Assembly: GCA_013177825.1 (NCBI GenBank)
Contig: JABLXX010000001.1
Location: 656,936-720,935, forward strand
Length of the DNA stretch: 64,000 bases
Direction: 5' to 3'
From: Syntrophaceae bacterium
Lineage (GTDB): Bacteria; Desulfobacterota; Syntrophia; Syntrophales; PHBD01
Below the pieces are notes generated by a model. It did not search any database. It saw nothing but the letters and a program-made list of their open reading frames with translations, and was not told the DNA's origin. Shown here piece by piece: positions 31,276-60,114 of this stretch. A program made the translations under genes and the position numbers. Position 1 is the first letter of the stretch. The number at the start of each line of letters is the position of its first letter.

Positions 31276-32418
31276 ATGGACATTCTGAATTATACGGAAG
31301 AGCACGGGATCTTCCGCGACACGGCACGAAGGTTCGTTGCGAACGAACTGACACCTCACGCCGAAGAATGGGAAGATGCCGGCATCGTTCCCCGGAGCGT
31401 CTGGCTGAAGATGGGACAGCAGGGATTCCTGGGTACTTCCGTTCCCATGGAATACGGCGGACCGGGAGCGGATTTCCTCTACTCGATGATTGTGATCGAA
31501 GAGCTGGCCCGGGCGAACCTGTCGAGCTTCTCCACGTGGCTCCACAGCGACATCGTCGTCCCGTATATCGTGTCGTTCGCGACGGAAGATCAGAAGCAAA
31601 AGTATCTTCCCGGCTGTGTGAGCGGCGACATCATCACATCGGTGGCCATGACGGAGCCCAACGCGGGGAGCGATCTGGCGGCCATGAAGACAACGGCCGT
31701 GGAGGACGGCGACTTCGTCGTCATAAACGGCCAGAAGACGTTCATCTCGAACGGGATCAACTGCGACCTGTGCGTCCTGGCCGCCAAGGACCCGTCCGAG
31801 AAGAACCCCCACGCGTCGGTGGACCTGTATCTCGTGGAGGCGGACACGCCGGGCTTCGAGAAGGGCAGGAGGATCAAAAAGGCCGGCTGTCACAGCCAGG
31901 ACACGGCGGAACTCTATTTTACGGACTGCCGGATTCCGAAGCAGAACCGGCTGGGGGAAAAGGGCACGGGCTTTTTAAAGCTGATGCAGAAGCTCCAGCA
32001 GGAGCGCCTGGTCTGCTCCGTCGTGGCCATCGCCGGAGCGGAATACATGCTCGACATCACCATCCCCTACTGCCGCGAGCGGACGGTATTCGGGAAGCCG
32101 ATCTCCAAGTTCCAGCACAATCAGTTCGAGATCGTGGAGATGGCGACGGAAATCAAGCTGGGCAGGACCTTCATCGACAAGCTGGTGGCGGACCACATGG
32201 AGGGCCGCAACATCGTCATCGAGACGTCCATGGCCAAGTACTGGACGACGGACCTGGCCTTCAAGGTGGCCGACCGGTGCATGCAGCTTCACGGCGGCTA
32301 CGGGTACTGCGATGAATATCCGATCTCGCGCGCCTGGCGGGACTGCCGGGCGGCCCGGATTTTCGCCGGCACCAACGAGATCATGAAGGTCATCATCGCG
32401 CGCTTCATGGGGCTGTAG
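31276..32418 (+). CDS. acyl-CoA dehydrogenase (LCAD-type)
   Basis: AMTEPNAGSDL, NGQKTFISNG, KLQQERL (LCAD-position Glu), HGGYGY and IFAGTNEIM. AAGGAG RBS. Confidence 0.95.
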   Translation: MDILNYTEEHGIFRDTARRFVANELTPHAEEWEDAGIVPRSVWLKMGQQGFLGTSVPMEYGGPGADFLYSMIVIEELARANLSSFSTWLHSDIVVPYIVSFATEDQKQKYLPGCVSGDIITSVAMTEPNAGSDLAAMKTTAVEDGDFVVINGQKTFISNGINCDLCVLAAKDPSEKNPHASVDLYLVEADTPGFEKGRRIKKAGCHSQDTAELYFTDCRIPKQNRLGEKGTGFLKLMQKLQQERLVCSVVAIAGAEYMLDITIPYCRERTVFGKPISKFQHNQFEIVEMATEIKLGRTFIDKLVADHMEGRNIVIETSMAKYWTTDLAFKVADRCMQLHGGYGYCDEYPISRAWRDCRAARIFAGTNEIMKVIIARFMGL

Positions 32419-37105: not shown

Positions 37106-38782
37106 ATGGCTTTTGAGAGAATCTGGCACAAATCGTATGCCCCGGGAGTGCCCCCGGAGATCGAATTTCAGAAAATCACGACGGCGCAGGCCCTGATCCG
37201 GTCGGCCAAGAATTTTCCTAACCACATCGCTTTCATCTACATGGGCCGGCGGATCACCTACCGCGAGCTGGACGCCCTCGTGAACCGCTTCGCCAACGCG
37301 CTCATTGACCTGGGCGTGAAGGAGGGTGACAAGGTGGGGATGCTCCTGCCCAACCTTCCCCAACTGATCATCGCCTGCCATGCCGTCCACCGGCTCGGGG
37401 CCGTGACGGCCATGAACAACCCCCTCTACACGGAAAAGGAACTGGCGCACCAGTTGAAGGACTGCGACGCCCGGTTCCTCATCACCCTCGATCTGCTCCT
37501 GCCCCGGGCGCTTGCCCTGAAGGGGCAGACGAGCGTCGAGGCGATCATCACCTGCCATATCAACGACTACCTGCCCTTCCCGAAGAAGCAGCTCTTCCCC
37601 TTCGTGAAGAAGGCCATGTACCGGAAGGTGGACCCCCGGAAAGACGTTCACGAGTTCATGACCCTCATGGACAAGGCCTCCTCGAATCCTGTCCCGGACC
37701 GGTCCCGATGGGACAAGCTGGGTGCGCTGATCTACACGGGGGGAACAACGGGTGTTTCCAAGGGAGCGATGCTGACCCATGCGAACCTCTCCTCCGTCGT
37801 CCAGATCTTCCGTGCCTGGCTGCCCGATCTCAAGGACGGGGAGGTGCACATCGTGGGAACCTATCCCATCTTCCACTCGGCAGGTTACACCGCGAGCCAG
37901 AACCTGACCATCGGAAGTGGCTGGACCTCGACGATCATCCCGCGGCCGGAGCCGGGCATCCTCATCGAGACCGTGAAGAAGTACAAGCCGAACTTCCTGC
38001 CCGGCGTGGCCTCCATCTTTGTCGGGCTCCTGGCCGACAAGGAGTTCCGCAGCATGGACAAGTCCTTCCTCAAGGGCTTCTTCACCGGGGCATCCCCCAT
38101 CGCCGCCGACACCGTGCAGGATCTGAAAAAGCTGACCGGCAAGGACGTCTACGAGATCTACGGGATGACGGAAAACACGGCCTTCGCCACGGCGACCCCC
38201 TGGGGGGGGAAGGTGAAGGCGGGCACGGTCGGGCTGCCGCTTCCGAATACGGAACTGAAGGTGGTCGACCTGGACGAGGGCACTACGGTTCTCAAGCCCG
38301 GTGAGGCCGGCGAGATCTGCATCAAAGGCCCCCAGGTGATGACGGGGTACTACAAGCGTCCCGACGAGACGGCCCTGGCCATCCGCGACGGCTGGCTTTA
38401 CACGGGGGACATCGGCATCATGGATGAGGAAGGGTATTTCCGCATCGTGGACCGAAAAAAGGACATGATCGTCGCCGGGGGCTACAACATCTATCCCAAG
38501 GACATCGACGAGATCCTCTTCCAGCACGACAAGATTCTCGAGGCCTGTACCATCGGTGTTCCCGACACCTACCGGGGGGAGACGGTCAAGGCCTTTGTTG
38601 TCCTGAAAGGAGGCGAGAAGATGACGGCGGACGAGGTCATCGCCCACTGCAAGGCGCACCTGGCCGCCTACAAGGTTCCCAAAATCATCGAGTTTACAAG
38701 CGAACTTCCGAAGAGCAACGTGGGAAAGATCCTGCGCCGGGAACTCCGGGACCAAGAGATGAAAAAACAATCCAAAGGATGA
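37106..38782 (+). CDS. long-chain acyl-CoA synthetase (FadD-like)
   Basis: YTGGTTGVSKG, YGMTE, YTGDIG and DRKKDM. Confidence 0.95.
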   Translation: MAFERIWHKSYAPGVPPEIEFQKITTAQALIRSAKNFPNHIAFIYMGRRITYRELDALVNRFANALIDLGVKEGDKVGMLLPNLPQLIIACHAVHRLGAVTAMNNPLYTEKELAHQLKDCDARFLITLDLLLPRALALKGQTSVEAIITCHINDYLPFPKKQLFPFVKKAMYRKVDPRKDVHEFMTLMDKASSNPVPDRSRWDKLGALIYTGGTTGVSKGAMLTHANLSSVVQIFRAWLPDLKDGEVHIVGTYPIFHSAGYTASQNLTIGSGWTSTIIPRPEPGILIETVKKYKPNFLPGVASIFVGLLADKEFRSMDKSFLKGFFTGASPIAADTVQDLKKLTGKDVYEIYGMTENTAFATATPWGGKVKAGTVGLPLPNTELKVVDLDEGTTVLKPGEAGEICIKGPQVMTGYYKRPDETALAIRDGWLYTGDIGIMDEEGYFRIVDRKKDMIVAGGYNIYPKDIDEILFQHDKILEACTIGVPDTYRGETVKAFVVLKGGEKMTADEVIAHCKAHLAAYKVPKIIEFTSELPKSNVGKILRRELRDQEMKKQSKG

Positions 38783-40814: not shown

Positions 40815-41957
40815 ATGGAGATTCTGACGTTCACGGAGGAGCACAAGATTTTTCGCGAGAGCCTGCGGCGTTTCCTGGAGAAGGAGATCGTTCCCCACAT
40901 CGAGGAGTGGGAGGAAGCGGGCATCGTCCCCAAGAGCTACTGGCAGAAAATGGGGGAGAACGGCTTTCTCAGCACCTGGGTTCCCGAGGAGTACGGCGGG
41001 GTAGGAGCGGATTTCCTGTATTCCGTCATCGTCTGCGAGGAGATGGCAAAGTGCAATTTCTCGGGCCTCGCGGCTTCCCTTCACAGCGACATCATCGTGC
41101 CCTACATCGCCTCCTTCGGAACCGAGGAGCAGAAGAAGAAATATCTCCCGGGATGCGTGACCGGAGACTGCATCACCGCCGTCGCCATGACGGAGCCCAA
41201 TACGGGAAGCGACCTGGCGGCGATCCGCACCACCGCCGCCGAGAAGGACGGCATGATCGTCCTCAACGGCCAGAAAACCTTCATCTCCAACGGGATCAAC
41301 TGTGATGTCCTCGTCCTGGCGGCCAAGGACCCGGCGGTGGAGAACCCCCACCGGGCCGTGGACCTCTACCTCGTCGACGCGGGGACGCCCGGTTTTGAAA
41401 AGGGCCGGCGCATCAAGAAGGTCGGCTGGCACAGCCAGGACACGGCGGAACTCTATTTCACCGACTGCCGGATTCCGGCGGAGAACCGGCTGGGGACGAA
41501 AGGGTCGGGTTTCCTCAACCTGATGATGAAGCTTCAGCAGGAGCGCCTGATCTGCGGGATCGGGGCGCAGGTGGCGGCGGAGTGCATGCTGGAGTGGACG
41601 ATCAAGTACTGCCGGGAACGGACGGCCTTCGGGAAGCCCATCGCCAAGTTCCAGCACAGCCAGTTCGAGTTCGCGGAGATGGCCACGGAGATCAAGATCG
41701 GCCGGACGTTCATCGACAAACTCGTCGCCGACCACATGGAGGGGAAGAACGTCACCGTCGAGGTGTCCATGGCCAAGTACTGGCTCACCGAGATGGCCTG
41801 CCGCGTCGCGGACCGATGTGTCCAGCTGCATGGAGGATATGGGTATTGCGAAGAATATCCCATCGCCCGGGCGTGGCGGGACATCCGGGTGACCCGGATT
41901 TTTGCCGGCACCAACGAGATCATGAAAGGAATCGTGGCGAAGTTCATGGGACTGTAA
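40815..41957 (+). CDS. acyl-CoA dehydrogenase (LCAD-type), paralog of 31276-32418
   Basis: Same length and collinear motifs: AMTEPNTGSDL, KLQQERL and IFAGTNEIM. Confidence 0.95.
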   Translation: MEILTFTEEHKIFRESLRRFLEKEIVPHIEEWEEAGIVPKSYWQKMGENGFLSTWVPEEYGGVGADFLYSVIVCEEMAKCNFSGLAASLHSDIIVPYIASFGTEEQKKKYLPGCVTGDCITAVAMTEPNTGSDLAAIRTTAAEKDGMIVLNGQKTFISNGINCDVLVLAAKDPAVENPHRAVDLYLVDAGTPGFEKGRRIKKVGWHSQDTAELYFTDCRIPAENRLGTKGSGFLNLMMKLQQERLICGIGAQVAAECMLEWTIKYCRERTAFGKPIAKFQHSQFEFAEMATEIKIGRTFIDKLVADHMEGKNVTVEVSMAKYWLTEMACRVADRCVQLHGGYGYCEEYPIARAWRDIRVTRIFAGTNEIMKGIVAKFMGL

Positions 41958-43171: not shown

Positions 43172-43339
43172 GGAACGGCTTCCTTCAACCAACCTGCCGG
43201 TTCCGTCGGACCCATCGGTGACGGCGGGGCCCGGCCGGGTCGGAAGGAGGACATGGAGTTTTCCGGAGGCAGGATCCGGGCGGGTGCTGTTTCCGGCTGT
43301 TATCGGAGCGATTTTTTTCACAAAGGAGGATCAGGATTC

Positions 43340-44107
43340 ATGAACGTGAAGGACTGCATTGCCGTCGTAACGGGAGGGGCTTCCGGACTGGGGGAGGCCT
43401 GTGTGAGAACCATCGTGAAGAACGGGGGGAAGGCGGTCATCTTCGATCTTCAGGATGAGCGCGGCGCCAACCTGGCCGCCGAGCTGGGCGCAAACTGCCT
43501 GTATACCAAGACGGACGTGACGAACGAGGAGAGCGTCCAGGCCTCCATCGCCAAGGCCGCCGAGGCCTTCGGAACGATCAACGCCGCCATCAACTGTGCC
43601 GGCGTCGGAGCTGCCGCCAAGGTCCTCTCCAAGAAGGGGCCCTACCCGTTGAAAGCCTTCAACTGGGTTGTCCAGATCAACCTCATCGGAACCTTCAACG
43701 TGATCCGCCTGACGGTGGAGCAGATGGCGAAGAACACGCCGAATGCCGAAGGCGAACGGGGCGTCATCATCAACACCGCCTCAGCGGCGGCCTTCGACGG
43801 CCAGATCGGCCAGGCGGCCTACAGCGCCTCCAAGGCCGGCGTCGTGGGGATGACCCTTCCCGTCGCCCGGGAGTGCGCCGATTACGGGATCCGCGTGATG
43901 ACCATCGCCCCGGGGCTATTCGATACGCCCATGCTGGCCCTGCTGCCGCAGGAGGCCCGGGACGCCCTCGGCGCGAGCGTTCCCTTCCCGAAGCGGCTTG
44001 GAAACCCGATGGAATACGCCATGCTGGCGAAGCACATCATCGAGAACACGATGCTCAACGGGGAAGTGATCCGCCTGGACGGTGCGATCCGGATGGCGGC
44101 GAAATAA
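43340..44107 (+). CDS. 3-hydroxyacyl-CoA dehydrogenase, SDR (HSD10-type)
   Basis: [32 protein letters not shown] and IAPGLFDTP. Confidence 0.93.
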
Positions 44108-44112
44108 GTTGC

Positions 44113-44286
44113 GGAATCGGCGTTTATCAAGCGCTCAGAGATTTTTCTCCGACCGTGCACCTGCTCGCTGCACTGCAGCCGCCAAACTTGCGCTGGCGCG
44201 CTTCGGACATGGCGGCTGCGGGCGTTCCGCTGCGCGGGCACGGGGCCCGGGAAAAATCTGGTTCACCCCTGATAAACGCCGATTCC
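44113..44286. repeat. rod-like palindromic repeat, family A, copy A3
   Basis: 17-bp perfect terminal stem, 10-bp inner stem, and loop motifs shared with 49171 and 57813. Confidence 0.85.
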
Positions 44287-44326
44287 CACATGTTTTTATG
44301 AGAAAGAAAAAGGAAGGGAAGGAATT

Positions 44327-45550
44327 ATGAGTCATCACGACAAAGATGAAATCGTCATCGTCAGCGCCTGCAGGACGCCTTTCAGCCGATTCGACTCCGC
44401 CATGGCGGACATCGCCAGTATCGACCTGGCGGTCATCGTCATGAAGGAGGTCATTGCGAGGGTCGGCGTGAAGCCGGAGGAGCTGGGCGAGATCAACTAC
44501 GGCAGCTGCGTCATGGCGGAGATGGCCCTGGAGACGGACATCCCCGTCCGCCAGGCCGCGCTCCTGGCGGGCTGGCCTCCGGAGATCCTCTCCGTTACCC
44601 TCGACCGGGCCTGCTGCTCCTCCCTGACGGCCCTCCGCCTGGGAGTCCGGGCCATCCGGGCTGGGGAGGCGGAGATCTGCATGTCCGTCGGCTCCGAGAA
44701 CATGCCCCGGATGCCCCACCTGGTTCCCGGGTTGCGAAAGGGTGTGCGTCTCGGCCACATCCGGATGCTCGACGGCCTCTTCGAACTGGGCTACGGTGCC
44801 AAGGGTTTTGCGCCGGTGTCCGTCGACGCCGGCGAGGTCTCCCTGGAGTACGGGGTCACCCGGGAGATGCAGGACGCCTGGGCCTGCCAGACCCAGGATC
44901 GCTACGCCCAGGCCTTTGCCGCCGGAAAGTACAAGGTGGGAGAGGAGATCGTACCCGTAGTCATTCCCCAGAAGAAGGGGGATCCCATCGTTATCGACCG
45001 GGACGAATCGCCCCGGCGGACCACCATGGAGATCCTGTCAAAGCTGAGGACCGTTTACGGAAGCCCGACGGTCACCGCCGGAAACGCGCCGCCCATCAGC
45101 GCGGGCTCCAGCGCGATTCTGTTCATGACGCGGCGGCAGGCCGAGGCAAAAGGACTGAAGCCCCTGGCTACGATTCTCGCGTCCGTTGGAACGGCCACGA
45201 AGCCGCGGGACATTCCCGTCATTCCCGCCCTGACCATCCGGGAGGCCCTCAAGCGGACCGGCCTGACCATCGACCGGATGGACCTGATCGAAATCAACGA
45301 GGCCTTCGCCGCCATGCCGCTCGTGTCCACGAAGATCCTGGCGGACGGCGACGAGGGGAAGTGGAAGGCCCTCCAGGAGAAGACGAACGTCAACGGCGGC
45401 GCCATCGCCATCGGCCACCCGGTGGGCGCCAGCGCCGGGCGGATCACCATGCACCTGGCCTACGAGCTCCAGCGCCGCGGCGGCGGCTACGGCGTCGCGT
45501 CCATTTGCGGCGGGTTGGCCCAAGGCGAGGCGGTGATCCTGAAAGTGTAA
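44327..45550 (+). CDS. thiolase (acetyl-CoA C-acyltransferase)
   Basis: RACCSS, INEAFA, GGAIAIGHPVGAS and SICGG. Confidence 0.95.
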   Translation: MSHHDKDEIVIVSACRTPFSRFDSAMADIASIDLAVIVMKEVIARVGVKPEELGEINYGSCVMAEMALETDIPVRQAALLAGWPPEILSVTLDRACCSSLTALRLGVRAIRAGEAEICMSVGSENMPRMPHLVPGLRKGVRLGHIRMLDGLFELGYGAKGFAPVSVDAGEVSLEYGVTREMQDAWACQTQDRYAQAFAAGKYKVGEEIVPVVIPQKKGDPIVIDRDESPRRTTMEILSKLRTVYGSPTVTAGNAPPISAGSSAILFMTRRQAEAKGLKPLATILASVGTATKPRDIPVIPALTIREALKRTGLTIDRMDLIEINEAFAAMPLVSTKILADGDEGKWKALQEKTNVNGGAIAIGHPVGASAGRITMHLAYELQRRGGGYGVASICGGLAQGEAVILKV

Positions 45551-45720: not shown

Positions 45721-47379
45721 ATGTCTTTCCAGCGGATCTGGCACAAGAGCTATCCACCGGGTCTTCCGGCGGAGATCGACTTCGACCGCATCACCATGCC
45801 CGAGGCCCTTACACGGTCGGCCTCGCGGTTTCCCGATAACCCCGCCCTGGTTTATTTCGGCACTGTCATCACGTACCGGGAACTGGACAAGCTGGTCAAC
45901 CGCTTCGCCAGGGCTCTCCTCGCCCTGGGGGTCAAAAAGGGCGACAAGGTGTCCATGATCCTGCCCAACATCCCCCAGATCGTCATCGCCGAATACGCGG
46001 CGTTCCGCATCGGGGCGGTCAACGTCATGAACAATCCCCTGTACACGGAGCACGAGCTGGCCCATCAGCTCAACGACTCCGAGTCCACCGTCCTGGTCAC
46101 CCTGGACCTGTTCCACCCGGTGGCACGGAAGCTCCAGGAAAGCACCGGAGCGAAAAAGGCCATCCTTTGCGGCCTGGCGGATTACCTGCCGGAGCCGCTG
46201 AAGCCCCTCTTCCCGCCGGCCGACGTCCCGCCAGCGGAGGGGGTATACAAATTCATGGACCTGATCGGTCCCCAGCCGGACGATCCCGTCCCGAACGATG
46301 CCTCCCTGGAGGAACTGGGGGCCCTCATCTACACGGGCGGGACGACGGGCCTCAGCAAGGGCGTCATGCTGAGCCATGCCAACATCTCCTTCAACGCCCA
46401 GCAGTTCCGGAGGTGGTACATCGGGCTCAAGGACGGCGAGGAGAGGCTGCTGGCCATCTTCCCCTTCTTCCACGCCGCCGGATGGACAGGGCTCCAGAAT
46501 ACGTCCATTTACGCCGGGTGGGCGGACATCCTCGTTCCCCGGCCGGAGCCGGACCGGATCCTGGACCTGCTGGAGAAGTTCAAGCCGACTCTCCTTCCGG
46601 GCGTGTCCACGATTTTTGTGGCGCTTCTCAACACCGAGCGGTTCCGGAAAATGGACCTGTCCTTCCTGAAGGCCTATCTCACCGGATCGGCCCCCATGGC
46701 GGTGGAGACCATCAAGATGCTCAAAGATCTCCGGGACGTGCCCCTGGTCAACGTGTACGGCCTCACGGAGATCACGCCCATGGGGACGGCGACGCCCTGG
46801 GGCGGCGACGAGAAGCCCGGCACCGTCGGAATCCCCTTTCCCAATACGGACCTCAGGATCATGGACCTCGAGACGGGGACGAAGGAAGTACCGCTGGGCG
46901 AGGCCGGCGAGATCTGTTTCAAGGGACCCCAGGTCATGATGGGATACTACAAGAATCCCGAGGAGACGGCGAAGGTCCTTGTGGACGGCTGGCTCCTGAC
47001 GGGCGACATCGGGGTCATGGACGAGGATGGGTACGTCACCATCGTGGATCGGAAGAAGGACATGATCCTCGCCAGCGGATTCAACATCTATCCCAAGGAG
47101 ATCGACGAGCTCCTGATGACCCACCCGAAAGTCCTCGAGGTGTGCACCATCGGGGTTCCCGACGCCTACCGGGGGGAGACGGTGAAGACCTTCGTGGTCG
47201 TCAAGCCGGGGCAGACCATGTCGGAGGAGGACGTGACGTCCTTCTGCCGGCAGACACTGGCGGCCTACAAGATTCCGAAAATGGTGGAATTCCTGGAGGC
47301 GCTGCCGAAGAGCGCCGTCGGCAAGATCCTGCGGCGGGAGCTCCGGGACCTGGAGATGAAGAAAATGGGAAAGGCCTGA
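45721..47379 (+). CDS. long-chain acyl-CoA synthetase (FadD-like), paralog of 37106
   Basis: N-terminus F.RIWHKSY shared with 37106. YTGGTTGLSKG, YGLTE and TGDIG. Confidence 0.95.
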   Translation: MSFQRIWHKSYPPGLPAEIDFDRITMPEALTRSASRFPDNPALVYFGTVITYRELDKLVNRFARALLALGVKKGDKVSMILPNIPQIVIAEYAAFRIGAVNVMNNPLYTEHELAHQLNDSESTVLVTLDLFHPVARKLQESTGAKKAILCGLADYLPEPLKPLFPPADVPPAEGVYKFMDLIGPQPDDPVPNDASLEELGALIYTGGTTGLSKGVMLSHANISFNAQQFRRWYIGLKDGEERLLAIFPFFHAAGWTGLQNTSIYAGWADILVPRPEPDRILDLLEKFKPTLLPGVSTIFVALLNTERFRKMDLSFLKAYLTGSAPMAVETIKMLKDLRDVPLVNVYGLTEITPMGTATPWGGDEKPGTVGIPFPNTDLRIMDLETGTKEVPLGEAGEICFKGPQVMMGYYKNPEETAKVLVDGWLLTGDIGVMDEDGYVTIVDRKKDMILASGFNIYPKEIDELLMTHPKVLEVCTIGVPDAYRGETVKTFVVVKPGQTMSEEDVTSFCRQTLAAYKIPKMVEFLEALPKSAVGKILRRELRDLEMKKMGKA

Positions 47380-47450: not shown

Positions 47451-49121
47451 ATGATCCTGGCATCACAGGAAACGATTCGCCGGTGGACTGAGGCGGGGGC
47501 CTGGGGACACAAGACGCTGCTCGATTATTTCCGTTTTCACGTCCGCAAGGCGCCTGACAAGATCTGTCTGGTCGATCCATTGAACAAGGAAGCCCTCGTG
47601 GGGCTGAAACCGGAGAAGCTGACCTACGGGGAACTCGCCCGAGCGGCCGATGCCGTGGCCGAAGGGCTCCTGGCGAAGGGATACGGGAAGGACGACATTT
47701 TCATGGTCCAGCTTCCCAACGTCTGGGAACTGGCCATGCTGTACCTAGCAATCTCGCGCATGGGCGGACTCATTTCTCCCATGCCCATGCAGTGGCGGGC
47801 CTCGGAGCTGGAGTTCATCGCAGGGATCACGGAGGCCAAGGCCATCCTGACGGTCGAATCCTTCGGGAACTTCGGCCACGGGGAGATGGCGGAGAAGGTC
47901 AAGGCAAAGCAGGCCTCGATCCGGGAGATCATCTACCTGCCGGAGATCCGGGAAATGTCGAAGCAGCCTCTGACGGGGAAGCTCGACGGCATCGTCGTCG
48001 ACCCCAACGACATCTTCACCCTCTCCTGGTCGTCGGGGACCGAGGCGGAGCCCAAGGGTTGCCCGCTGTCGCACAACAACTGGATCTTTCAGGGGAACCT
48101 GTGCTTCGAGATGGCGCCCATCTCCTGGGGGGACAACCTGATCACGGCGGGACCGCTGGTCAACATGGCCTCCATCGGGACGGTCTACATCCCCTGGCTC
48201 ATCGGCGGCGGAAAGCTCGTTCTCCACCACCCCTTCGACGGTCCTTCGTTCGTCATGCAGCTCATGGCGGAGGAGATCCACTACACCCTGCTGGTGCCGG
48301 CGGTCGTGAACGCCCTCCTGAAGCACCCCATGGTGGACAAGTTCGACTTCAGCAAGATGAGGGCCATCACGATCGGCGCCGCTCCACCGTCCCTGTGGTC
48401 TGTTCAGGAGCTCCAGCGCCGCTGGGGAATCGACTTCGCCAACATCTGGGGACAGAACGAGGGGACGGCCAACGTGGCCAGCGGCTACGACATTCCCGAC
48501 ATGGCCATGCGCCTGGATCATTTCCTCTTCACCGGCCCGGGGAGCAAGTGGACCCGGACGGGCACCCAGATGTCGAAGCATGTTTCCATGAAGCTGATCA
48601 ACGCCGGCATCCCCGGCGGCCCGAAGAAAGAAGGGGACGTAGGGGAACTGTGGTACCGGGGGCCCAATGTGATCCCCGGCTACTTCAAGCGGCCCGACCT
48701 GACGGCCAAGGCCTTCGACGCGGAGGGTTACTTCAACACGGGTGACCTCTTCCAGTTGAAGGACAACGAGTGCATCGGCTTCTTCGAGCGGTCCAAGGAC
48801 ATCATCATCCGGGGCGGCTTCAACGTCAGCGCCCAGGAGGTGGAGAACATGGTCCTCGGCCACCCGAAGGTCCTGGACGCCGCGGCCGTGGCCATGCCCG
48901 ACGAGGCCCTCGGGGAGCGGACCTGCGTCTACGTCGTTCCGAAACCGGGCGAAACGGTGACCCTCGAGGAGATCGTGGCTTTCATGAAGGAGAAGGGGCT
49001 GGCGGTCTACAAGATCCCCGAGCGGCTGGAGATCATCGAAGCCATCCCGCGCAATCCCGTGGGAAAGATCCTCAAGAAGGTCCTGCGAGAGGACATCAAG
49101 AAGAAGTTGGGCACACCCTGA
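47451..49121 (+). CDS. class I adenylate-forming enzyme (acyl-CoA ligase with divergent P-loop)
   Basis: WSSGTEAEPKG, WGQNE, FNTGD and RSKDIIIRGG. Confidence 0.88.
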   Translation: MILASQETIRRWTEAGAWGHKTLLDYFRFHVRKAPDKICLVDPLNKEALVGLKPEKLTYGELARAADAVAEGLLAKGYGKDDIFMVQLPNVWELAMLYLAISRMGGLISPMPMQWRASELEFIAGITEAKAILTVESFGNFGHGEMAEKVKAKQASIREIIYLPEIREMSKQPLTGKLDGIVVDPNDIFTLSWSSGTEAEPKGCPLSHNNWIFQGNLCFEMAPISWGDNLITAGPLVNMASIGTVYIPWLIGGGKLVLHHPFDGPSFVMQLMAEEIHYTLLVPAVVNALLKHPMVDKFDFSKMRAITIGAAPPSLWSVQELQRRWGIDFANIWGQNEGTANVASGYDIPDMAMRLDHFLFTGPGSKWTRTGTQMSKHVSMKLINAGIPGGPKKEGDVGELWYRGPNVIPGYFKRPDLTAKAFDAEGYFNTGDLFQLKDNECIGFFERSKDIIIRGGFNVSAQEVENMVLGHPKVLDAAAVAMPDEALGERTCVYVVPKPGETVTLEEIVAFMKEKGLAVYKIPERLEIIEAIPRNPVGKILKKVLREDIKKKLGTP

Positions 49122-49170
49122 CGTCCGCCGGGAGACCACGGCTGCGTTCGGGCGCGGTACAAAAATATGT

Positions 49171-49497
49171 GGGAGGGGGCTTCCCTCGCGCTCAGAAGCG
49201 TTTTTTCGACCCTGCAACGTCTCGCTCCGCTGCAAAGTCATAACTCGCACCTGGCGGTGCTCAGACAGATGACTTTGCGGGCGCTACGCTGCGACGGCAG
49301 GGTGCCCCGAAAAAGCCGCTATTCGCGCTCCGGGAAGCCCCCTCTCCCCGACGGACGTTCGCGGGGGCGCGACCGGGGGTTTCCAGAGGAGCAATTGGGA
49401 CTTTTTTCCCATCCCTCCATCCTGACGGACCGTCGACGACGGATCGCGGGAAAAAACGTCCGCGACGGCGGAAGCCCCCGTGGCAGCCCCCGCGCCA
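49171..49497. repeat. composite palindromic repeat: family A core (49171-49346) plus family C hairpin (49360-49494)
   Basis: About ten differences from 57823-58138 over roughly 318 nt by manual comparison. Two nested long hairpins. Confidence 0.92.
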
Positions 49498-49659
49498 AGG
49501 CGCATCCTGCACAGGAAAGGGTGATCCGGCCGGATGGGAAACAAAAGGGGAATAAGGTATGGGGCGGGCTTGAAAGCCGTTCCTTTCTTCAAAGAGCGAA
49601 AGATACAGCGCAATGAATTATCCGGGCTTTTCCCAAGGTTGAGAAAGGAGGAGAACGAC

Positions 49660-51285
49660 ATGATGGATTACCCGCTCCTGCTGACGACGTTCATGACTCG
49701 GACAGCGAAATTCTTTTCGAAGAAGGAAATCGTCTCCGTCTATCCCGAGGAGAACTTCCGCTACACCTATGCCGATTATTACCGGCGGACCTGCCAGCTG
49801 GCTCACGCCCTGAAGTCCCTGGGAGTGAAGAGGGGTGACCGGGTGGCCAGCATGGCCCTCAACAGCCATCGCCACCTGGAGCTGTATTTCGGTGTTCCCT
49901 GCATGGGGGCGGCCCTGCACACGGTGAACTTCCGCCTGCCGCCGCATCACCTGGCCTACATCCTGAATCACGCAGAGGACCAGGTGGTCTTCGTGGACGA
50001 GGATCTGGTCTTCTTCCTGGAGATGATCAAAGACCAGCTCAAGACGGTGAAGCATTTCGTGATCCTTTCGCAGACGGGCAAGATGCCGCAGACGTCGCTC
50101 AGCCCCGTCACCCTTTACGACGACCTCATTGCCCCCTTCCCGACGGAGTACGACTGGCCGCGGGACCTCTCCGAGTGGGATCCGGCGCTCATCTGCTACA
50201 CCTCCGCCACAACGGGAGATCCGAAGGGGGTCGTGTACAGCCATCGCGGTATCGTGATGCACACGTACGCCGCCTGCTGCACCCTCGGCACCACGGAGAG
50301 CGACTGCTGCCTCCACGTCGTGCCCATGTTCCATGCCAACGCCTGGGGCGTTCCCTTCGCCTGCATGGCCCTGGGCTGCAAGCAGGTCCTCCCGGGACGG
50401 GAGTTGTTGAACATGGAGAAGATCTGCCGGATGATCGCCGACGAGAAGGTCACCTTCACCGCCGGTGTGCCGACGATCTGGATGATGCTGTACCAGTACC
50501 TGGAGGCGGGCGGCTGGTACGATTTTTCCTCCCTGAAGGGGATCTTTTCCGGCGGATCCGCCTGCCCCCGGTTCCTCATGGAGGGCCTGAACGAGAAGTA
50601 CGGATTCCCCATCCACCAGGCCTACGGCATGACGGAGACGACGCCCCTGGTCCTGGCGGCGATCCCGAAAAGTGACATGCAGGGCCTGTCCCAGCAGGAG
50701 ATGTACGACATCAAATCCAGCGCCGGACTCCTGGTGCCGGGGCTGGAGATGCGGATCGTCGACGAGCGGGGCCGGGACGTCCCCATGGACGGCAAGTCCT
50801 GGGGAGAGATCCTGCTCCGTGGCCCCTGGATCGCCAGGGAATACTACAAGGATCCCGAGCGGTCGGCGCCTGTCTTCGCCGGTGGCTGGCTTCACACGGG
50901 CGACGTGGGGACCATCGATTCCGAGGGGTACGTTCGCCTGGTGGACCGGACGAAGGACCTCGTGAAAAGCGGCGGCGAGTGGATCTCATCGGTGGACCTG
51001 GAGAACCTCATCATGGCCCATCCCAAGGTTCTCGAGGCGGCAATTATCGGGATTCCCGACGAAAAGTGGTCCGAGCGGCCCCTGGGCTGCATCGTCGTGA
51101 AGCCCGGGGAGACGCTTACCACATCGGAGATCAGGGACTTTCTCAAGGACCGGGTCAAGGCCGACTGGTGGATTCCCAAACAGTTTGCTTTTATTGATGC
51201 GATTCCCAAGACGAGCGTCGGCAAGTTCAGCAAGCGCGACCTCCGGCAGATGCATGCGGAGGGGAAGCTGACGCTGACGTCTTGA
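49660..51285 (+). CDS. medium/long-chain acyl-CoA ligase (AlkK/FadD-like)
   Basis: YTSATTGDPKG, PMFHANAWG, GMTET, DRTKDLVKSGGEWISS and KTSVGK. Confidence 0.93.
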   Translation: MMDYPLLLTTFMTRTAKFFSKKEIVSVYPEENFRYTYADYYRRTCQLAHALKSLGVKRGDRVASMALNSHRHLELYFGVPCMGAALHTVNFRLPPHHLAYILNHAEDQVVFVDEDLVFFLEMIKDQLKTVKHFVILSQTGKMPQTSLSPVTLYDDLIAPFPTEYDWPRDLSEWDPALICYTSATTGDPKGVVYSHRGIVMHTYAACCTLGTTESDCCLHVVPMFHANAWGVPFACMALGCKQVLPGRELLNMEKICRMIADEKVTFTAGVPTIWMMLYQYLEAGGWYDFSSLKGIFSGGSACPRFLMEGLNEKYGFPIHQAYGMTETTPLVLAAIPKSDMQGLSQQEMYDIKSSAGLLVPGLEMRIVDERGRDVPMDGKSWGEILLRGPWIAREYYKDPERSAPVFAGGWLHTGDVGTIDSEGYVRLVDRTKDLVKSGGEWISSVDLENLIMAHPKVLEAAIIGIPDEKWSERPLGCIVVKPGETLTTSEIRDFLKDRVKADWWIPKQFAFIDAIPKTSVGKFSKRDLRQMHAEGKLTLTS

Positions 51286-55493: not shown

Positions 55494-56543
55494 TTATCTC
55501 TCCCCGTTCCGCTTCGTTGCCAGGAAGGCGGCGACGGCCGCCTGAATCGATTCCTTCTCGCAGATGAAGGAGAAGTGGCCGCAGTCTCCGGCCAGCTCCA
55601 GCGTCTCCGCGCCCAGGAACCGGGCCCATTCCCGGGCCGGTCCGGGCTGGACCATCCGATCCTCTTTCGCCCAGATGACGAGGTTCCGCGCCTTCACGGT
55701 TCTCGCGGCCTCCTCCGGCGAGTTCCTGAAGCTGCGGTAGACGTCCTGGGACATGATCGCCTCGACCTGGGACGCCCAGTTCTCGGCATCGTACGTCGTG
55801 ATGATCTTTTCGGACTCTGCGAGGAACTGGGGCATGGCTTCCGGACGGATGCGGGCGTTCAGGTTCGCCGGCGTCCAGGCGTTGAGGTTATGGACGGCCG
55901 TGATGGCCTTCATGGCCTTGAGTCCTCCCCCTTCGATGCCCCGGGTCGAGCGGATGATGTCGAGCTGGGCCTGCCAGAGAAGGAGGTCGTACGCGGTCTG
56001 CCTGGGCGTACCCACGACGGCCACGACCCAATCGGCGGACCCGGGATGGGAAACGGACCATTGAAAGGCGTTGAAGGCCCCCATCGAGATGCCCATGACA
56101 CCTTTGAGGCGGGACAGTCCCAGGTGGTCCGTTACAAGACGGTGCTGGGCCGCCACGAGATCCCGGGCCGAGAAGCGGGGGAACGTTTCTCCAGGCTGGC
56201 TTTTGCTGTTGGACGGCGAGGAAGAAACCCCGTTGCCGAAGGCATCCACGGCCACAATGAAGTATTTCGAGCTGTCCGCCATTTTCCCCGGGCCGATGTA
56301 TCCCAGCGACGCGAGGTCTTCCGACGTTCCGGACAGCCAGGTCGCAAACAGGACCGTGTTGGATTTCTCCAGGTTGAGGGTGCCGAAGGTGCGGTATCCC
56401 ACCCGGCAGTCCCGGATCGTCTGTCCACTTTCCAGATTGCATTCGCCGAGATCGGCATACTGCAGCTCCCCGTCGGCCCGCACGGAACCGGGCAGGAGCA
56501 GCAGTGCCGAGATCAAAACCGCAAGAATGCGGATCGATTTCAT
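55494..56543 (-). CDS. exported alpha/beta hydrolase of the homoserine O-acetyltransferase-like fold
   Basis: Signal peptide, LESGQTI..CRVGYRTFG, GNGVSSSP, GISMG nucleophile elbow and GHF. Confidence 0.8.
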   Translation of the reverse strand: MKSIRILAVLISALLLLPGSVRADGELQYADLGECNLESGQTIRDCRVGYRTFGTLNLEKSNTVLFATWLSGTSEDLASLGYIGPGKMADSSKYFIVAVDAFGNGVSSSPSNSKSQPGETFPRFSARDLVAAQHRLVTDHLGLSRLKGVMGISMGAFNAFQWSVSHPGSADWVVAVVGTPRQTAYDLLLWQAQLDIIRSTRGIEGGGLKAMKAITAVHNLNAWTPANLNARIRPEAMPQFLAESEKIITTYDAENWASQVEAIMSQDVYRSFRNSPEEAARTVKARNLVIWAKEDRMVQPGPAREWARFLGAETLELAGDCGHFSFICEKESIQAAVAAFLATKRNGER

Positions 56544-57718
56544 GCTTTTTTGTCCTCCTCTTTTTCGATGACGCCCAGAATGCCGAAGACCGTCTCCAGT
56601 CGCCGCTCCCAGGTGTGCTCCCGGCGGGCCCGTTCGAACCCGCGGCGGCGAATCTCCTCCGCCTCGTCCGGATGGGTCAGGAGATGGCGGATCTTCGCTG
56701 CCAGGTCGTCCGGGTTTTGCCAGGTGACGATCTCCCGGCCGATGTCATAGGCCCGGGCCAGTTCCGGGTGGTCTTCCGTCAGGTAGAGCCCGCCGCTCAT
56801 GGGGATCTCGAAATCCCGCCCCTTCAGGCAGAAAGCCTCCGTATGTCCCTCCACCCCGCCGAAGCCCAGGTTGATCCGGCTCTGCGAGTAGAGCTTCACC
56901 ATGTCTTCCACGGGCAGCGGCCCTGCGGGCCAGCCGGGCCCGAAGGCCTCCACGGCGATGCCCCGGCGGCTCAGGTGATCGATCACGGCGGGCCGGTTCC
57001 CGTAGTACTGGCCGACAAAGGAGACGTCGAGGATTTTCTCCACGTCGAAGGGCCGGTGGACGGAGGGATTCGCCCCCTCGGGCAGGTAGATCGGCCGCCC
57101 CCCCTGGACGCAGTACTTGATCACGGCGTCTCCGGTGCTGGTCCAGGAGAGGTCGATCCAGCGGCAGATGTCGCGGTTGCCCGCGGCGCGGCCGTCCCGG
57201 GTGCGGCCGACGAAGCCCTCCTTGTCGTTGAGGGCCAGGTTGACCGTCGGGATATCGAGGCGATGGACTGCTTCCATCGTCTCCGGGAAGACATGTTCGC
57301 CCGAGAGGTAGAAGAATATTGCATCGGCCTCACCGGCTTTCCTCCTTTCCCGGATCCAGGCGAGGAGATCCCGGTTCATGGCCGCTTTCATCCCGCCGTG
57401 CCGGTCATCGCCCTCGGCGTTGAAACGGCCGGACCAGTCGTAGCGATGGACCGTTCCAAACATGGCAAGCGACGGGGTGAGGGCTTCGTCTTCCCAGTTG
57501 AAATTGCGGTAGACGGCGAGGATGTGAAGGGCGCCTCTGGCCTTCGGCTGCAGGCCGGGGAAGCGGGCCTTGAAGGTGCCGCGGAGGGCCGCCTCGTCGG
57601 GGATCGCGAGATTCCGGCGTCGAAAGCGATCCTCGTACTCCTCCTGTTCCCGGACGAGCCGCCGGTCGTTTCTCCACCGCCAGAATCGGTTTCGCAGTGT
57701 CCGGAAAAGGTCGGTCAT
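56540..57718 (-). CDS. glycosyltransferase (CgeB/Glyco_trans_1_2-like)
   Basis: PEGANP, DVSFVGQYYGNR, SRINLG, RDFEIPMSGG and EHTWERR. Confidence 0.85.
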   Translation of the reverse strand: MTDLFRTLRNRFWRWRNDRRLVREQEEYEDRFRRRNLAIPDEAALRGTFKARFPGLQPKARGALHILAVYRNFNWEDEALTPSLAMFGTVHRYDWSGRFNAEGDDRHGGMKAAMNRDLLAWIRERRKAGEADAIFFYLSGEHVFPETMEAVHRLDIPTVNLALNDKEGFVGRTRDGRAAGNRDICRWIDLSWTSTGDAVIKYCVQGGRPIYLPEGANPSVHRPFDVEKILDVSFVGQYYGNRPAVIDHLSRRGIAVEAFGPGWPAGPLPVEDMVKLYSQSRINLGFGGVEGHTEAFCLKGRDFEIPMSGGLYLTEDHPELARAYDIGREIVTWQNPDDLAAKIRHLLTHPDEAEEIRRRGFERARREHTWERRLETVFGILGVIEKEEDKKA

Positions 57719-57782: not shown

Positions 57783-58138
57783 CGGGGCTGTCACGGGGGC
57801 GAGCTCCTGAACGGGAGAGGGACTTCCCTCGCGCTCAGGAGCGTTTTTTCGACCCTGCAGCGTCTCGCTCCACTGCAAAGTCATAACTCGCGCCTGGCGG
57901 CGCTCAGACAGATGACTTTGCGGGCGCTGCGCTGCGACGGCAGGGTACCCCGAAAAAGCCGCTATTCGCGCTCCGGGAAGCCCCCTCCCCGACCGACGTT
58001 CGCGGGGGCGCGACCGGGGGTTTCCAGAGGAGCAATTGGGACTTTTTTCCCATCCCTCCAGCCTGACGGACCGTCGACGACGGATCGCGGGAAAAAACGT
58101 CCGCGACGGCGGAAGCCCCCGTGGCAGCCCCCGCGCCA
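57783..58138. repeat. composite repeat A2 (A core plus C hairpin) bracketed by 18-bp imperfect inverted repeats
   Basis: Homologous to 49180-49497. CGGGGCTGTCACGGGGGC (57783-57800) matches the reverse complement of GCCCCCGTGGCAGCCCCC (58115-58132) at 16/18. Confidence 0.92.
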
Positions 58139-58169: not shown

Positions 58170-58293
58170 GGGCTGTTCAAAAATGCCCGGATGCAAGGCC
58201 CCCGAAATCCTGAACCATGAGTCGTAACCTTTTCGGTACGTCGGACGGCGAAGGATGAGGGAAAAGCGGCAGACGGGTGTTTTTCAAAAGCCC
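58170..58293. repeat. family B repeat, copy B2 (inverted relative to B1)
   Basis: GGGCTGTTCAAAAA ... TTTTTCAAAAGCCC termini. Shared core ATGCAAGGC-CCCGAAATCC-GAG.CGTA-GTACGTCG-GGATGAGG-GCAGA. Confidence 0.8.
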
Positions 58294-58309
58294 GACCGGA
58301 AACGTTTTC

Positions 58310-58341: not shown

Positions 58342-58390
58342 TATGCCCGTTTTGCGCGGTGAACCGTTTGAAAACACGAAAACGTTTCTG

Positions 58391-59311
58391 TTATTTCCAC
58401 AGTGTGAACAACCTCGCCCCGTTCGACTTGTCCACCCGGTCGTTCATCATGTTGAGGACATGCCCCGCGTCGACGGCGGGAACGCCAAAGCGGCGGGCCG
58501 CGTCCACGCAGACCGGCAGGGCGCCGATGCCCGCCCCGACCAGGAGCAGGTCCATCCCGGCCGGGACACGGCCGAGGACCTCCTCTTTCATATCGTGCCA
58601 GCGGGTGGCGACATAGCTGTTCGGGATGTCGACCAGCTCGATCTGCGGGCGGCTCCCGTGGCCTTCGAACCAGCGGGCGCAGGCGGCGCCGTCGCTGTCG
58701 GAATTGAGGATGGCCAGCCTGCGGCCGTCCATCAGGCGGGCGAAGGCTGCCGAGGAGAAATAGGCGTAGACGGCATAGAAGGGGACGTAGTTCTCTCCCG
58801 TCAGCGGGATCCCCGTTTCCTCCAGGTAGCGCAGAAAGGTCGTAGCCGAGGGCCGGCGGCGCCAGCGCTTGAACAGCGCCTTCCAGCCTGCGGTGGGTTC
58901 TTCGATGTTGCCCGGGAAGACGAGGGGGGCGAGGAGGCCCGTCCGTGCCAGTTCCCGAAGAGCCTCCGCGTGCAAGGGGAGGGCATCGCGGATGGCGGAT
59001 TGCGATTCCGCCTGCTGGTAGAGGCCGTTGCAGGCCAGGTCAAAATGATAGAATGCGTACTCGCCGTCGGCAAAGCGGACGACGGGCAAAGGCTTGCGGC
59101 GGGCAATGGCGCCGGCGACCCGGTCGCCGAGACGCTTCACGTAGTCGGTCCCCGAAGCTATGTCCCGGTGGAACAGGCAGGTTTCTTCCCGGATCATCTT
59201 CGGGTCGTTCACCCGGAAGACGGGATCGTTGTCGATGCCGGAAATGTCGAGCTTTCGGAAGGAAAAGGCTCCGCCGGAGGTGAGCCGCTCGATCGGATCG
59301 GGTGTCTTCAC
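58391..59311 (-). CDS. GT-D-fold-like glycosyltransferase domain protein
   Basis: VVRFADGE and LVGAG...DAGH motifs. GTG start at 59311 after GAGGGA. The longer 478-aa ORF start is antisense-like junk overlapping the next gene. Confidence 0.6.
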   Translation of the reverse strand: MKTPDPIERLTSGGAFSFRKLDISGIDNDPVFRVNDPKMIREETCLFHRDIASGTDYVKRLGDRVAGAIARRKPLPVVRFADGEYAFYHFDLACNGLYQQAESQSAIRDALPLHAEALRELARTGLLAPLVFPGNIEEPTAGWKALFKRWRRRPSATTFLRYLEETGIPLTGENYVPFYAVYAYFSSAAFARLMDGRRLAILNSDSDGAACARWFEGHGSRPQIELVDIPNSYVATRWHDMKEEVLGRVPAGMDLLLVGAGIGALPVCVDAARRFGVPAVDAGHVLNMMNDRVDKSNGARLFTLWK

Positions 59312-59337
59312 GGAATGTCCCTCAAGTCGATGGTCCT

Positions 59338-60114
59338 TCAGACGCCGGCGATGACATCGCGGAGGATCCGGTAGTCCGTCAGTACGGGATAGCGGGGAAG
59401 GGGCTCCGCAGAGACAACCATGGCCAGGGGAATCTTCAGGGCCGACGATTCGCGGTAGTGGACGTGCAGCTCCTTCCAGGGGATCCGTCCATCCTTGTGG
59501 AGGGTCCGGATGTCCGCCAGGAAATCGTGGCGCTTCCAGTTCTCCACGAGGACGAACCAGCGGGTTGCCGCCCCGAACAGGTTCGCCAGGGCATTCCGGT
59601 GGTTCTGCCGGATGTGCATGATCACCGCCTGGGTGAAGGCCGCCTCGACCCGGGGCAGCTCGAGGCTTCCGGGTTCCGCCGTCAGGTCCCGGGGCTCGAC
59701 CCAGGCCGGGAGATCCGGGTGCCGCCTCCGGAGGAGGGCCACCTGGCCGTCGGACACGTCGACGCCATGCAGGCGGAATTTCGGATTCAGTACGTGGAGG
59801 TTGTGCAGGTGGTCTCCGCCCCCGCACCCCCCCTCCAGGATCGAATCGGGAGACAGCTGGAGGAGCGTCTCGTACGTGATGTGGTAGTTCGGATGGAGGG
59901 GCTTGATGTCCCGCTGGAGATTCAGGCGCTCGCCGTCGAAGGCGTAATCCCCTTCCCGGAGGATCAGGGTGTGATCCCGGGCGATGTCGTCCAGGCCCTC
60001 CCTGTAGATCTCCGAGTAAAACTGCCAGTCGTAGTCGTCGGGGGCCTTCCTGCCCGTCCGGAGCATCTTGAAGAATTTGCGGATGTGATACAGCCGGTCG
60101 GCCGTTGTGCCCAT
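59338..60114 (-). CDS. class I SAM-dependent methyltransferase
   Basis: ILEGGCGGG motif I, LHGVDVS and AFTQAVIMH. Confidence 0.85.
   Translation of the reverse strand: MGTTADRLYHIRKFFKMLRTGRKAPDDYDWQFYSEIYREGLDDIARDHTLILREGDYAFDGERLNLQRDIKPLHPNYHITYETLLQLSPDSILEGGCGGGDHLHNLHVLNPKFRLHGVDVSDGQVALLRRRHPDLPAWVEPRDLTAEPGSLELPRVEAAFTQAVIMHIRQNHRNALANLFGAATRWFVLVENWKRHDFLADIRTLHKDGRIPWKELHVHYRESSALKIPLAMVVSAEPLPRYPVLTDYRILRDVIAGV

Follow-up and report, generated by a model that had tools for sequence, protein, structure and literature searches.

Covarying stems around a conserved unpaired core in a probable family of non-autonomous hairpin repeats of Syntrophaceae

A 64,000-nt stretch of the genome of a Syntrophaceae bacterium (assembly GCA_013177825.1, contig JABLXX010000001.1, positions 656,936 to 720,935 of the forward strand; hereafter the window, numbered from its first nucleotide) carries three copies, A1, A2 and A3, of a long hairpin element which we call family A. 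Across the family, copies have been gained, lost, inverted, nested and degraded in intergenic DNA beside unrelated genes; the surviving lineages keep a long hairpin with a sequence-conserved unpaired core, and the outer ~25 bp are free to change provided that their pairing is kept. With a probability of roughly 70%, we read family A as lineage-specific, non-coding, non-autonomous interspersed palindromic repeats of Syntrophaceae/Syntrophales, which resemble the REPIN, BIME, ERIC, BOX and MITE families in behaviour.

Each of the three window copies folds into a single long hairpin, a rod of ~190 nt whose stability was reached by none of 200 dinucleotide shuffles, and each is matched by a covariance model (CM) of the family (E-values from 1e-29 to 1e-45; scores and folding energies in Table 1). 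An earlier note, made from the letters of the window alone, had described three copies folding into the same nested hairpin, which we confirm with slightly wider bounds from the CM. Alignment of 44100-44300, 49160-49360 and 57803-58003 brought out blocks common to all three copies, and searches of the whole window with the loop motifs (exact and with three mismatches) returned A1, A2 and A3 only. A1 and A2 lie inside a longer duplicate of ~320 nt (49176-49497 = 57819-58138, 95-98% identical) and therefore come close to one data point; thus the informative comparison within the window is that of A3 with A1/A2. Between A3 and A1, 15 pairs were changed on both sides and still paired, and four were changed on one side. 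The inner stem reads GCAGCCGCCA/TGGCGGCTGC at 44175-44184/44210-44219 in A3 and GCAAAGTCAT/ATGACTTTGC at 49232-49241/49269-49278 in A1, so that the earlier note had quoted correctly both these stems of different sequence and same pairing and the compensatory double change between A1 and A2 (A49249-T49258 vs G57892-C57901).

Outside the window, a pattern made of the two loop strands and a free gap between them was run against 185,579 species, each represented by one genome. The scan yielded at least 120 loci, and among the loci listed about two thirds were true copies, all of them in metagenome-assembled genomes (MAGs) labelled Syntrophus, Syntrophaceae, Syntrophales, Syntrophobacterales or unclassified "Deltaproteobacteria/Thermodesulfobacteriota"; the rest were spurious, differently spaced matches within GC-rich coding sequences from other phyla. 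A covariance model, R1 (193 positions, 67 pairs), built from 63 non-redundant copies, matched ~90 copies in 81 loci, including copies which the search pattern had missed (compared loci outside the window are given L-numbers, such as L015 or L123). Further copies, whose absence the earlier note had named as a refutation of its reading, thus clearly exist. As lower bounds, the family is carried by at least 24 species-level MAGs and reaches at least 23 copies in one MAG. Copies within one genome were near-identical, single and dispersed between housekeeping genes, and nearly all copies of the family lay between predicted genes. Many contigs stop inside a copy, an effect that high-copy repeats have on assemblies.

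No described family accounted for these copies. At gathering thresholds Rfam found nothing in the whole window apart from one tRNA, and Rfam 15 at E <= 10 returned nothing relevant around A3 or around A1 with its tail, including riboswitches, 6S, ribozymes and OMEGA/HEARO-type RNAs; the match to a known Rfam family which the earlier note had allowed for was thus not found. No family match was present in the PLSDB plasmids, the one pattern match in viral contigs was due to chance and was rejected by the CM, and a search of the literature on Syntrophus or Syntrophaceae repeats found no description. Judged by Rfam and the searchable literature, family A is undescribed.

Pairing of the stems was tested on two alignments. 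Standard pairs occupied 87.0% of the cells in the MAFFT alignment and 89.6% in the CM alignment (82 copies), as compared with 42-51% and 42-49% respectively in a control in which the 3' partners were slid by 1-3 columns. Double-sided changes were found at 37 pairs (MAFFT) and 41 pairs (CM alignment), and none of 500 shuffles reached any of the covariation measures in either alignment. In particular, the inner helix (helix 6) was paired in 98.7-98.8% of the cells and contained eight covarying pairs with up to three Watson-Crick types per pair; one-sided cells numbered 0-2 per pair and two-sided cells 14-35, with almost no wobble intermediates. The pattern of covarying stems and conserved central loops, which the earlier note had drawn from three copies, thus holds in ~80 further copies.

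The anatomy of the hairpin (~190-215 bp across the family) can be followed from base to apex: i) an outer stem of ~25 bp, whose sequence is common within a subfamily and unrelated between subfamilies (TTGAAAATCATGCTCCC...; GGGAGGGGGCTTCCC... in A1/A2; GGAATCGGCGTTTATCA... in A3), so that the termini too are common within a subfamily (for example GAGAGCCTTGAAAA...TTTTCAAGGCTCTC in L084) and unrelated between subfamilies that share the core; ii) a semi-conserved stem inside it, GC(G/A)CNC(A/T)GGA / TCC...GCG(C/T)GC; iii) a conserved helix, TTTTT(T/C)CG-ACCCTGC with GCAGGGT-(GCCC)-CGAAAAA (strands TTTTTCGACCCTGC / GCAGGGTGCCCCGAAAAA); iv) a short covarying helix, CTCC/GGAG or CGTC/GACG; v) an asymmetric internal loop which carries one motif in direct orientation on both strands (TCGCTNCGCTGC, GCGGGCGCTNCGCTGC); vi) a covarying inner stem of 8-10 bp, with the variants AAAGACGA/TCGTCTTT, CGGGAAAA/TTTTCCCG, AAAGTCAT/ATGACTTT, AACGGCAA/TTGCCGTT and CAGCCGCCA/TGGCGGCTG; and vii) a conserved apical loop, AACTCGC ... 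CTCA(G/A)ACAG, which encloses the cap stem GCGC(C)/(G)GCGC. In the A1 core the direct repeat CGCTNCGCTGC stands on both loop strands; it lies on the same strand in both arms, and the palindrome is broken exactly there. Subfamily I is ~10 nt longer on each side (GAGACCTTTG...CAAAGGTCTC) and has a 9-nt bulge in its right arm. Two sequence features singled out in the earlier note did not extend to the family: an upstream GCGCTCAG is not conserved, and the TGGC/GCCA cap loop (a GNNA loop) gives way to cap loops that vary in both sequence and length.

Orthologous sites with and without a copy document gain and loss. The A3 site is filled in the window and in L032 and is empty at seven orthologous loci, i.e. 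L015 and six metagenome loci retrieved via the neighbouring AMP-ligase (L123, L124, L125, L127, L132 and L128); an exact lookup of the thiolase protein returned one contig, in which the site is likewise filled. At the empty sites 25-31 nt, including the same ribosome-binding site (RBS), come after the stop codon; relative to these sites A3 is an insertion of ~190 nt (about 44108-44297) placed directly after the stop codon, with the RBS intact. The flanks of the empty site in L123-L125 are ~94% identical in nucleotides to the window; A3, being absent from such close relatives, is therefore not needed for that operon. L050 is filled at a site that is empty in L043, and L043 is filled at a site where L050 retains only a right-arm remnant.

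Inverted, decayed and nested copies are known as well. At the A1 site, L015 has an orthologous copy arranged as in the window, and L104, L123 and L124 have the complete hairpin and its tail inverted and adjoining a 33-nt truncated 5' arm in the window orientation, which could reflect either an inversion in place or a second insertion into a first copy. These inverted loci (L104 320-900, L123 7870-8470 and L124) are orthologues of window 49100-49560, and the break falls right after CCCTCGCGCTC. A2 has an orthologous copy in L095. Decayed and rearranged copies include one with the core deleted (L020 33-131, TTTTTCG-CGG-CGAAAAA), two in which the core is replaced by GCAGGGGCAAGGGGACAGATTT(G/C)AAATCAGCCCCCTCC and the outer shell is intact (L117 2817-2937 and L075 1010-1140) and one with the apex deleted (L039 3685-3822); the outer shell is intact in L020 too, and shell and core may be separable modules. 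In a nested copy (L120 3490-3747, minus strand) a different, perfect palindromic repeat (…GGGACAGCTCCCGATTTTCCCCGGAAAATCGGGAGCTGTCCC…) occupies the apex and may belong to a second family of hairpin repeats whose targets are the tips of hairpins. Upstream of guaA, on the other hand, orthologous copies are kept in four species (71-81% identical), with outer stems that have changed and largely still pair, visibly more weakly in L039. Copies at orthologous sites diverge much as their flanks do and resemble one another at least as closely as the flanking coding DNA does.

For such a family we propose the following mode of spread. The element would multiply via a folded single strand, most likely single-stranded DNA (ssDNA) at the replication fork, and a trans-acting enzyme, whose gene would lie at another place in the genome, would recognise the conserved nucleotides of the loops and need the flanking helices as structure only. 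The conserved centre offered to such an enzyme would comprise the two internal-loop strands bearing CGCTNCGCTGC, the AACTCGC/CTCAGACAG apex and the TTTTTCG-ACCCTGC / GCAGGGT-CGAAAAA helix. New copies would be founded only by those that retain both the fold and the loops, and it is this filter that would leave stems that covary and loops that are conserved.

Several observations weigh against this reading. First, no candidate for the mobilising enzyme was found near the copies, in tests for linked genes which covered ~8 kb around each sampled copy: among 142 non-redundant neighbours no transposase occurred in the 25 most frequent Pfam families (including all families with at least two members), and a tblastn with IS200 (Y1) and RAYT consensus sequences, run against the window and the ~550 kb surrounding 90 copies, had no match below E = 0.1, the test being crude and weak. 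All-against-all clustering of the open reading frames in the 81 loci produced housekeeping families only, the two largest clusters being translations of the repeat itself, and no separated 5' and 3' arms around a coding insert were seen; the candidates for such arms proved to be degraded copies only, plus one coding false positive (L087). The statement in the earlier note that the window holds no cognate transposase accordingly stands for the ten genes around the copies and, by the weak tblastn, for genes of Y1 type, and its suggestion of an HUH/Y1 substrate has no direct support, no Y1/RAYT-like gene having been seen near the copies in these weak tests. Second, neither a consistent target-site duplication nor a target motif was found in the copy ends of one MAG, the ends of 80 copies as defined by minimum free energy (MFE) or the junctions of filled and empty sites, which are blurred by 5-15% divergence of the flanks; neither the filled/empty comparisons nor the 80 copy ends yielded a fixed terminal sequence. 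Third, orthologous copies persist across species and still pair, so that the structure may also be preserved in resident copies, something that a purely selfish model has no need of. Fourth, the invariance of the loops is partly built in, because the copies of the alignment had been retrieved with a search pattern that demanded the loop motifs. Fifth, the conserved centre and variable base of family A invert the arrangement of REPINs, in which the ends are conserved and the spacer is variable.

As to the loops, four lines of evidence for their conservation are free of the search bias: i) the comparison of A3 with A1/A2; ii) conservation in regions left free by the pattern, i.e. in the TTTTTCGACCCTGC/GCAGGGT...CGAAAAA helix and in the CTCAGACAG loop; iii) four intact copies found by the CM only, with one or two substitutions in the loop motifs; and iv) L123 and L124, which were retrieved via a neighbouring protein and score 177-181 bits.

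The left outer arm of A3, GCGGAATCGG (44108-44120), resembles the empty-site sequence CAGGAATGG in L123 (3078-3090), and the left outer arm of L050, AGGAGAAGAAT (~4338-4352), resembles the empty-site sequence AGGAGTAAAAT of L043. These two cases could be due to chance, to a target preference based on end pairing or to templating of the outer stem from the target, and the two arms hint that the outer stem could be partly templated. A model in which the outer stem is simply copied from the target was rejected: it is contradicted by subfamily I, in which outer stems are common to the copies and pairing stops at the consensus ends.

Strong covariation together with conserved unpaired nucleotides, and a highly significant folding energy, also fit a rival reading, in which the element is a functional structured RNA dispersed through the genome by duplication. 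It could act in cis on the mRNA, as a stabiliser, a processing site or an insulator between cistrons, or be a small RNA, or be a ribozyme that cleaves itself, in which case the conserved internal loops could be the active core. Kept guaA-site copies with changed yet paired outer stems fit such an RNA, as do an invariant U:G pair at model columns 76/128 and a frequent U:G at 64/148. The earlier note had argued against a riboswitch from strand, placing A2 in a minus-strand operon; A2 lies instead in a divergent intergenic region, and this argument fails, as sense transcription is possible for each of the three copies in the window. Relative to predicted genes, 22 copies were in sense and 12 in antisense orientation between co-directional genes, 11 lay between divergent and 10 between convergent genes, counts in which copies are not independent: a weak excess of sense copies thus stands against ~35% antisense copies between co-directional genes and 21 in divergent or convergent spacers. 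The common chromosomal orientation noticed earlier concerns the three window copies; family-wide, a GC-skew proxy for replication direction in 78 copies gave 46:31 (sign test p = 0.14, not significant), and neither this ratio nor the counts relative to genes are decisive.

The mismatches and the strands likewise speak against an RNA. Mismatched cells held 178 G:T (115 without the one invariant pair) vs 195 A:C, with no excess of G:T, so that G:U was not favoured over A:C and the mismatch spectrum is DNA-like. The RNA folding energy was lower for the minus strand in 74 of 81 copies, which is an effect of composition since shuffled minus strands were lower too; after correction for composition neither strand was favoured (A1: z = -6.9 for the plus and -5.6 for the minus strand), and both strands also fold as DNA. 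Moreover the neighbouring genes (acyl-CoA dehydrogenases, short-chain dehydrogenases/reductases (SDRs), AMP-ligases, thiolase, guaA, ychF and similar) have no common function, A3 is missing from the same operon in ~94% identical relatives, many copies have decayed, and no Rfam match emerged with all known ribozyme classes included. We therefore regard a functional RNA as unlikely. The preference of the earlier note for dispersed REP/MITE-like DNA over a riboswitch is upheld by the unrelated neighbours, the mixed orientation, the presence and absence of copies at orthologous sites and the lack of an Rfam match.

A DNA mechanism might also keep the two arms symmetric without selection on structure, through template switching between arms (correction of quasi-palindromes) or gene conversion between arms or between copies, and the apparent covariation would then hold no functional information. 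The scarcity of one-sided intermediates in helix 6, the equal frequency of G:T and A:C mismatches and the similarity of elements at orthologous sites, which matches or exceeds that of flanking coding DNA, are all as such a mechanism would have it. However, correction between arms would erase the asymmetric internal loops, the bulges and the 9-nt bulge of the right arm, all of which persist in different subfamilies and species; the pairing is broken in some decayed copies, and arm correction is therefore not automatic; and the spread to new sites is left unaccounted for. Symmetry by correction alone is thus quite improbable in our judgement.

Besides the hairpin itself, A1 and A2 are followed by tails of other repeat modules, B and C (Table 1), and A2 with its tail is bracketed by inverted C modules. 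Modules B and C also follow subfamily II copies in L104, L095 and L076; in addition, they recur in both orientations beside copies in the MAGs HGW-Deltaproteobacteria-19 and binchicken_co20_342. The subfamily II hairpin together with modules B/C is a mosaic resembling BIME or BOX elements. Two terminator-like hairpins, each a match to consensus only, are located in this region: GCGCTCAGAAGCGT followed by TTTTTT in the 5' arm of A1/A2 (49188-49207 and 57831-57850, plus strand), and TCCGCCGTCGCGGA followed by CGTTTTTT on the minus strand of the tail (49472-49449 and 58113-58090).

Among known systems, family A shares with REPINs (REP doublets that form hairpins) and BIMEs, which RAYT transposases of Y1 type mobilise (Bertels & Rainey 2011, PMC3116915), a high copy number, an extragenic and non-coding location and a long hairpin, folded in ssDNA or RNA, with compensatory changes. 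The REPIN hairpin is reportedly kept by such changes, which are common (PMC3116915), and the mode of spread proposed above for family A follows the reasoning put forward for REPINs. Further points in common are clusters or mosaics with other modules and vertical persistence in a bacterial lineage. On the other hand, family A is about twice as long as a REPIN (190-215 nt vs ~70-110 nt), and it is one rod of ~190 nt rather than the short imperfect palindrome (~20-40 nt, with a 5' GTAG-type tetranucleotide) of a REP. CTAC/GTAG occurs in family A only at the variable N of CGCTNCGCTGC (A, G, C or T among copies), and no RAYT gene was seen beside any of the ~90 copies in the weak tests described above, where a REPIN system would have a single-copy RAYT gene with repeats on its flanks. 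On the features examined, membership in the REP/REPIN-RAYT system was rejected for want of a GTAG-type signature and of a visible RAYT near the copies and for the inverted gradient of conservation.

The ERIC elements, or IRUs, of Enterobacteriaceae and Vibrio are imperfect palindromes of ~127 bp that occur between genes, within transcribed regions and in either orientation, and no transposase is known for them. Family A resembles them in having one long imperfect palindrome per unit, in occupying intergenic regions of operons in both orientations, in presence and absence at orthologous sites and in lacking a known mobilising agent; it differs in host lineage and sequence, which are unrelated, in subfamilies with unrelated outer stems and in the extra modules B and C. 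Similar features are shared with MITEs, of which Correia/NEMIS (Neisseria), RUP/BOX (Streptococcus) and Chunjie (Geobacter uraniireducens) are examples: small size (<600 bp), non-coding sequence, multiple copies, rod formation, presence/absence polymorphism and insertion between the genes of an operon without destroying it, BOX being a mosaic of modules as well. Classical MITEs, however, share terminal inverted repeats with a parent insertion sequence (IS) and generate a target-site duplication of fixed length, whereas in family A the terminal ~25 bp change from one subfamily to another, and the searches near the copies showed neither a duplication nor a parent IS. An origin as a classical MITE derived from a DDE transposon was therefore rejected.

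Palindrome-associated elements derived from IS200/IS605 transpose by "peel and paste" of ssDNA (PMC6006769). They parallel the mechanism proposed here in recognition of a folded strand, in the lack of a target duplication and in the weight of structure over terminal sequence. They carry two short subterminal hairpins at the left and right ends, as opposed to the one long rod of family A, and are further marked by insertion 3' of a fixed tetra- or pentanucleotide, by a TnpA (Y1) in the genome and by a strand bias relative to replication. Near the copies of family A no TnpA was seen, and no conserved target tetranucleotide was identified. Integron attC sites were rejected as well: copies are single and dispersed, there was no cassette array, and no integrase was present among the window genes adjoining copies or among the listed neighbour families. 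In behaviour family A is closest to the long palindromic units of ERIC type and to mosaic BIME/BOX repeats.

The likeness to BIMEs, which bind IHF and gyrase, brings up another explanation, namely that the copies are binding sites of a host protein (a nucleoid-associated protein, gyrase or a regulator) which would recognise the two direct CGCTNCGCTGC repeats, ~57 bp apart, in a duplex or a cruciform. The same-strand placement of CGCTNCGCTGC in both arms, which breaks the palindrome at that point, would suit such a site, as would six (N)CGCT units on one strand of the core (A1-A3 sequence) and the intergenic, dispersed and orientation-independent distribution of copies. Binding leaves unaccounted for, however, both the complementarity of ~60 further bp and the turnover, nesting and decay of copies, and no candidate protein was found; we consider it very improbable.

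A bolder and, in our estimate, unlikely proposal is that the conserved asymmetric core (the CGCTNCGCTGC strands plus the AACTCGC/CTCAGACAG apex, held between helices whose sequence is free) would be the recognition or catalytic module of an undescribed type of replicator. Such a core could be the substrate of an unrecognised ssDNA-processing enzyme other than RAYT or TnpA, or it could belong to a self-processing RNA or DNA; family A could then represent a vertically inherited hairpin population in Syntrophia with an architecture inverse to that of REPINs.

Under the reading as non-autonomous interspersed repeats, family A bears on a group that matters in methanogenic systems. In these, Syntrophaceae have a key part in the syntrophic degradation of fatty and aromatic acids; their genomes are nearly all fragmented MAGs, and a high-copy hairpin of ~200 bp may account for part of this fragmentation; R1 can be used for masking or annotating the family. 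Copies lie within operons, often a few bases past a stop codon, and in either orientation would thus give the mRNA a hairpin of about -90 kcal/mol, which may affect how adjacent genes are translated or their messages decay, in the way that REP does in E. coli; insertion inside catabolic operons, such as that between the SDR and thiolase genes, could thereby change the fate of the mRNA. The family also provides a clean case in which structure is kept and sequence is free, the unpaired core being conserved and no mobilising enzyme being known; the principle is not new and is already familiar from REPINs, ERIC and MITEs.

Table 1. Family A copies in the window, their parts, attached modules and adjoining genes
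Feature	Position	Strand	Evidence or remark
A3, divergent subfamily	44102..44294	+	CM match 119.6 bits; fold -92.7 kcal/mol, z -6.25
A3 conserved core: CTCGCTGCACT, inner stem, apical loop, GGGCGTTCCGCTGCG	44164..44234	+	Sequence, motif searches
A3 neighbour, SDR gene	43253..44107		Pfam; A3 after stop codon
A3 neighbour, thiolase gene	44327..45550		Pfam; A3 before RBS/start
A1, subfamily II	49159..49355	+	CM match 178.3 bits; fold -96.6 kcal/mol, z -6.86
A1 conserved core	49221..49293	+	Sequence, family alignment
A1 core 5' loop strand, CTCGCTCCGCT	49221-49231	+	
A1 apical loop AACTCGC...CTCAGACAG, cap stem	49247-49251/49256-49260	+	
A1 core 3' loop strand, GGGCGCTACGCTGCG	49279-49293	+	
A1 tail	49356..49497	+	Direct repeat D4, 98% identical; module searches
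Module B (GGGGGCGCGACCGGGGGTTTCCAGAGGAGCAATTGG) in A1 tail	49363-49398	+	
Module C (GCCCCCGTGGCAGCCCC) in A1 tail	49474-49490	+	
A1 neighbour, AMP-ligase gene	47451..49121		
A1 neighbour, AMP-ligase gene	49534..51285		
Module C, inverted, just upstream of A2	57784..57800	-	
A2, subfamily II	57802..57997	+	CM match 176 bits; fold -93.5 kcal/mol, z -5.89
A2 tail	57998..58138	+	Module B 58004-58039, module C 58115-58131
Module C, further copy	58323-58339	+	
A2 neighbour, divergent intergenic region	56540..57718	-	
A2 neighbour, divergent intergenic region	58277/58343..59374	+	

Directly downstream of A2 and its tail, the open reading frame 58277-59374 (plus strand, 365 aa) had no Pfam match at E <= 1e-5. 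The sole Rfam match of the window is a tRNA gene with a long variable arm (5336-5420, plus strand; 51 bits). Paralogous gene sets are present in the window (31276-31575 ~ 40815-41114; 38159-38458 ~ 46756-47055; 35354-36865 / 37229-38749 / 45844-47346), with acyl-CoA dehydrogenase-like genes and at least five AMP-ligase genes. CoA-transferase, SDR, thiolase and enoyl-CoA hydratase genes and a match resembling cyclohexane-1-carbonyl-CoA dehydrogenase were also found, and the gene content of the window fits a region for fatty or alicyclic acid degradation of the Syntrophus type.

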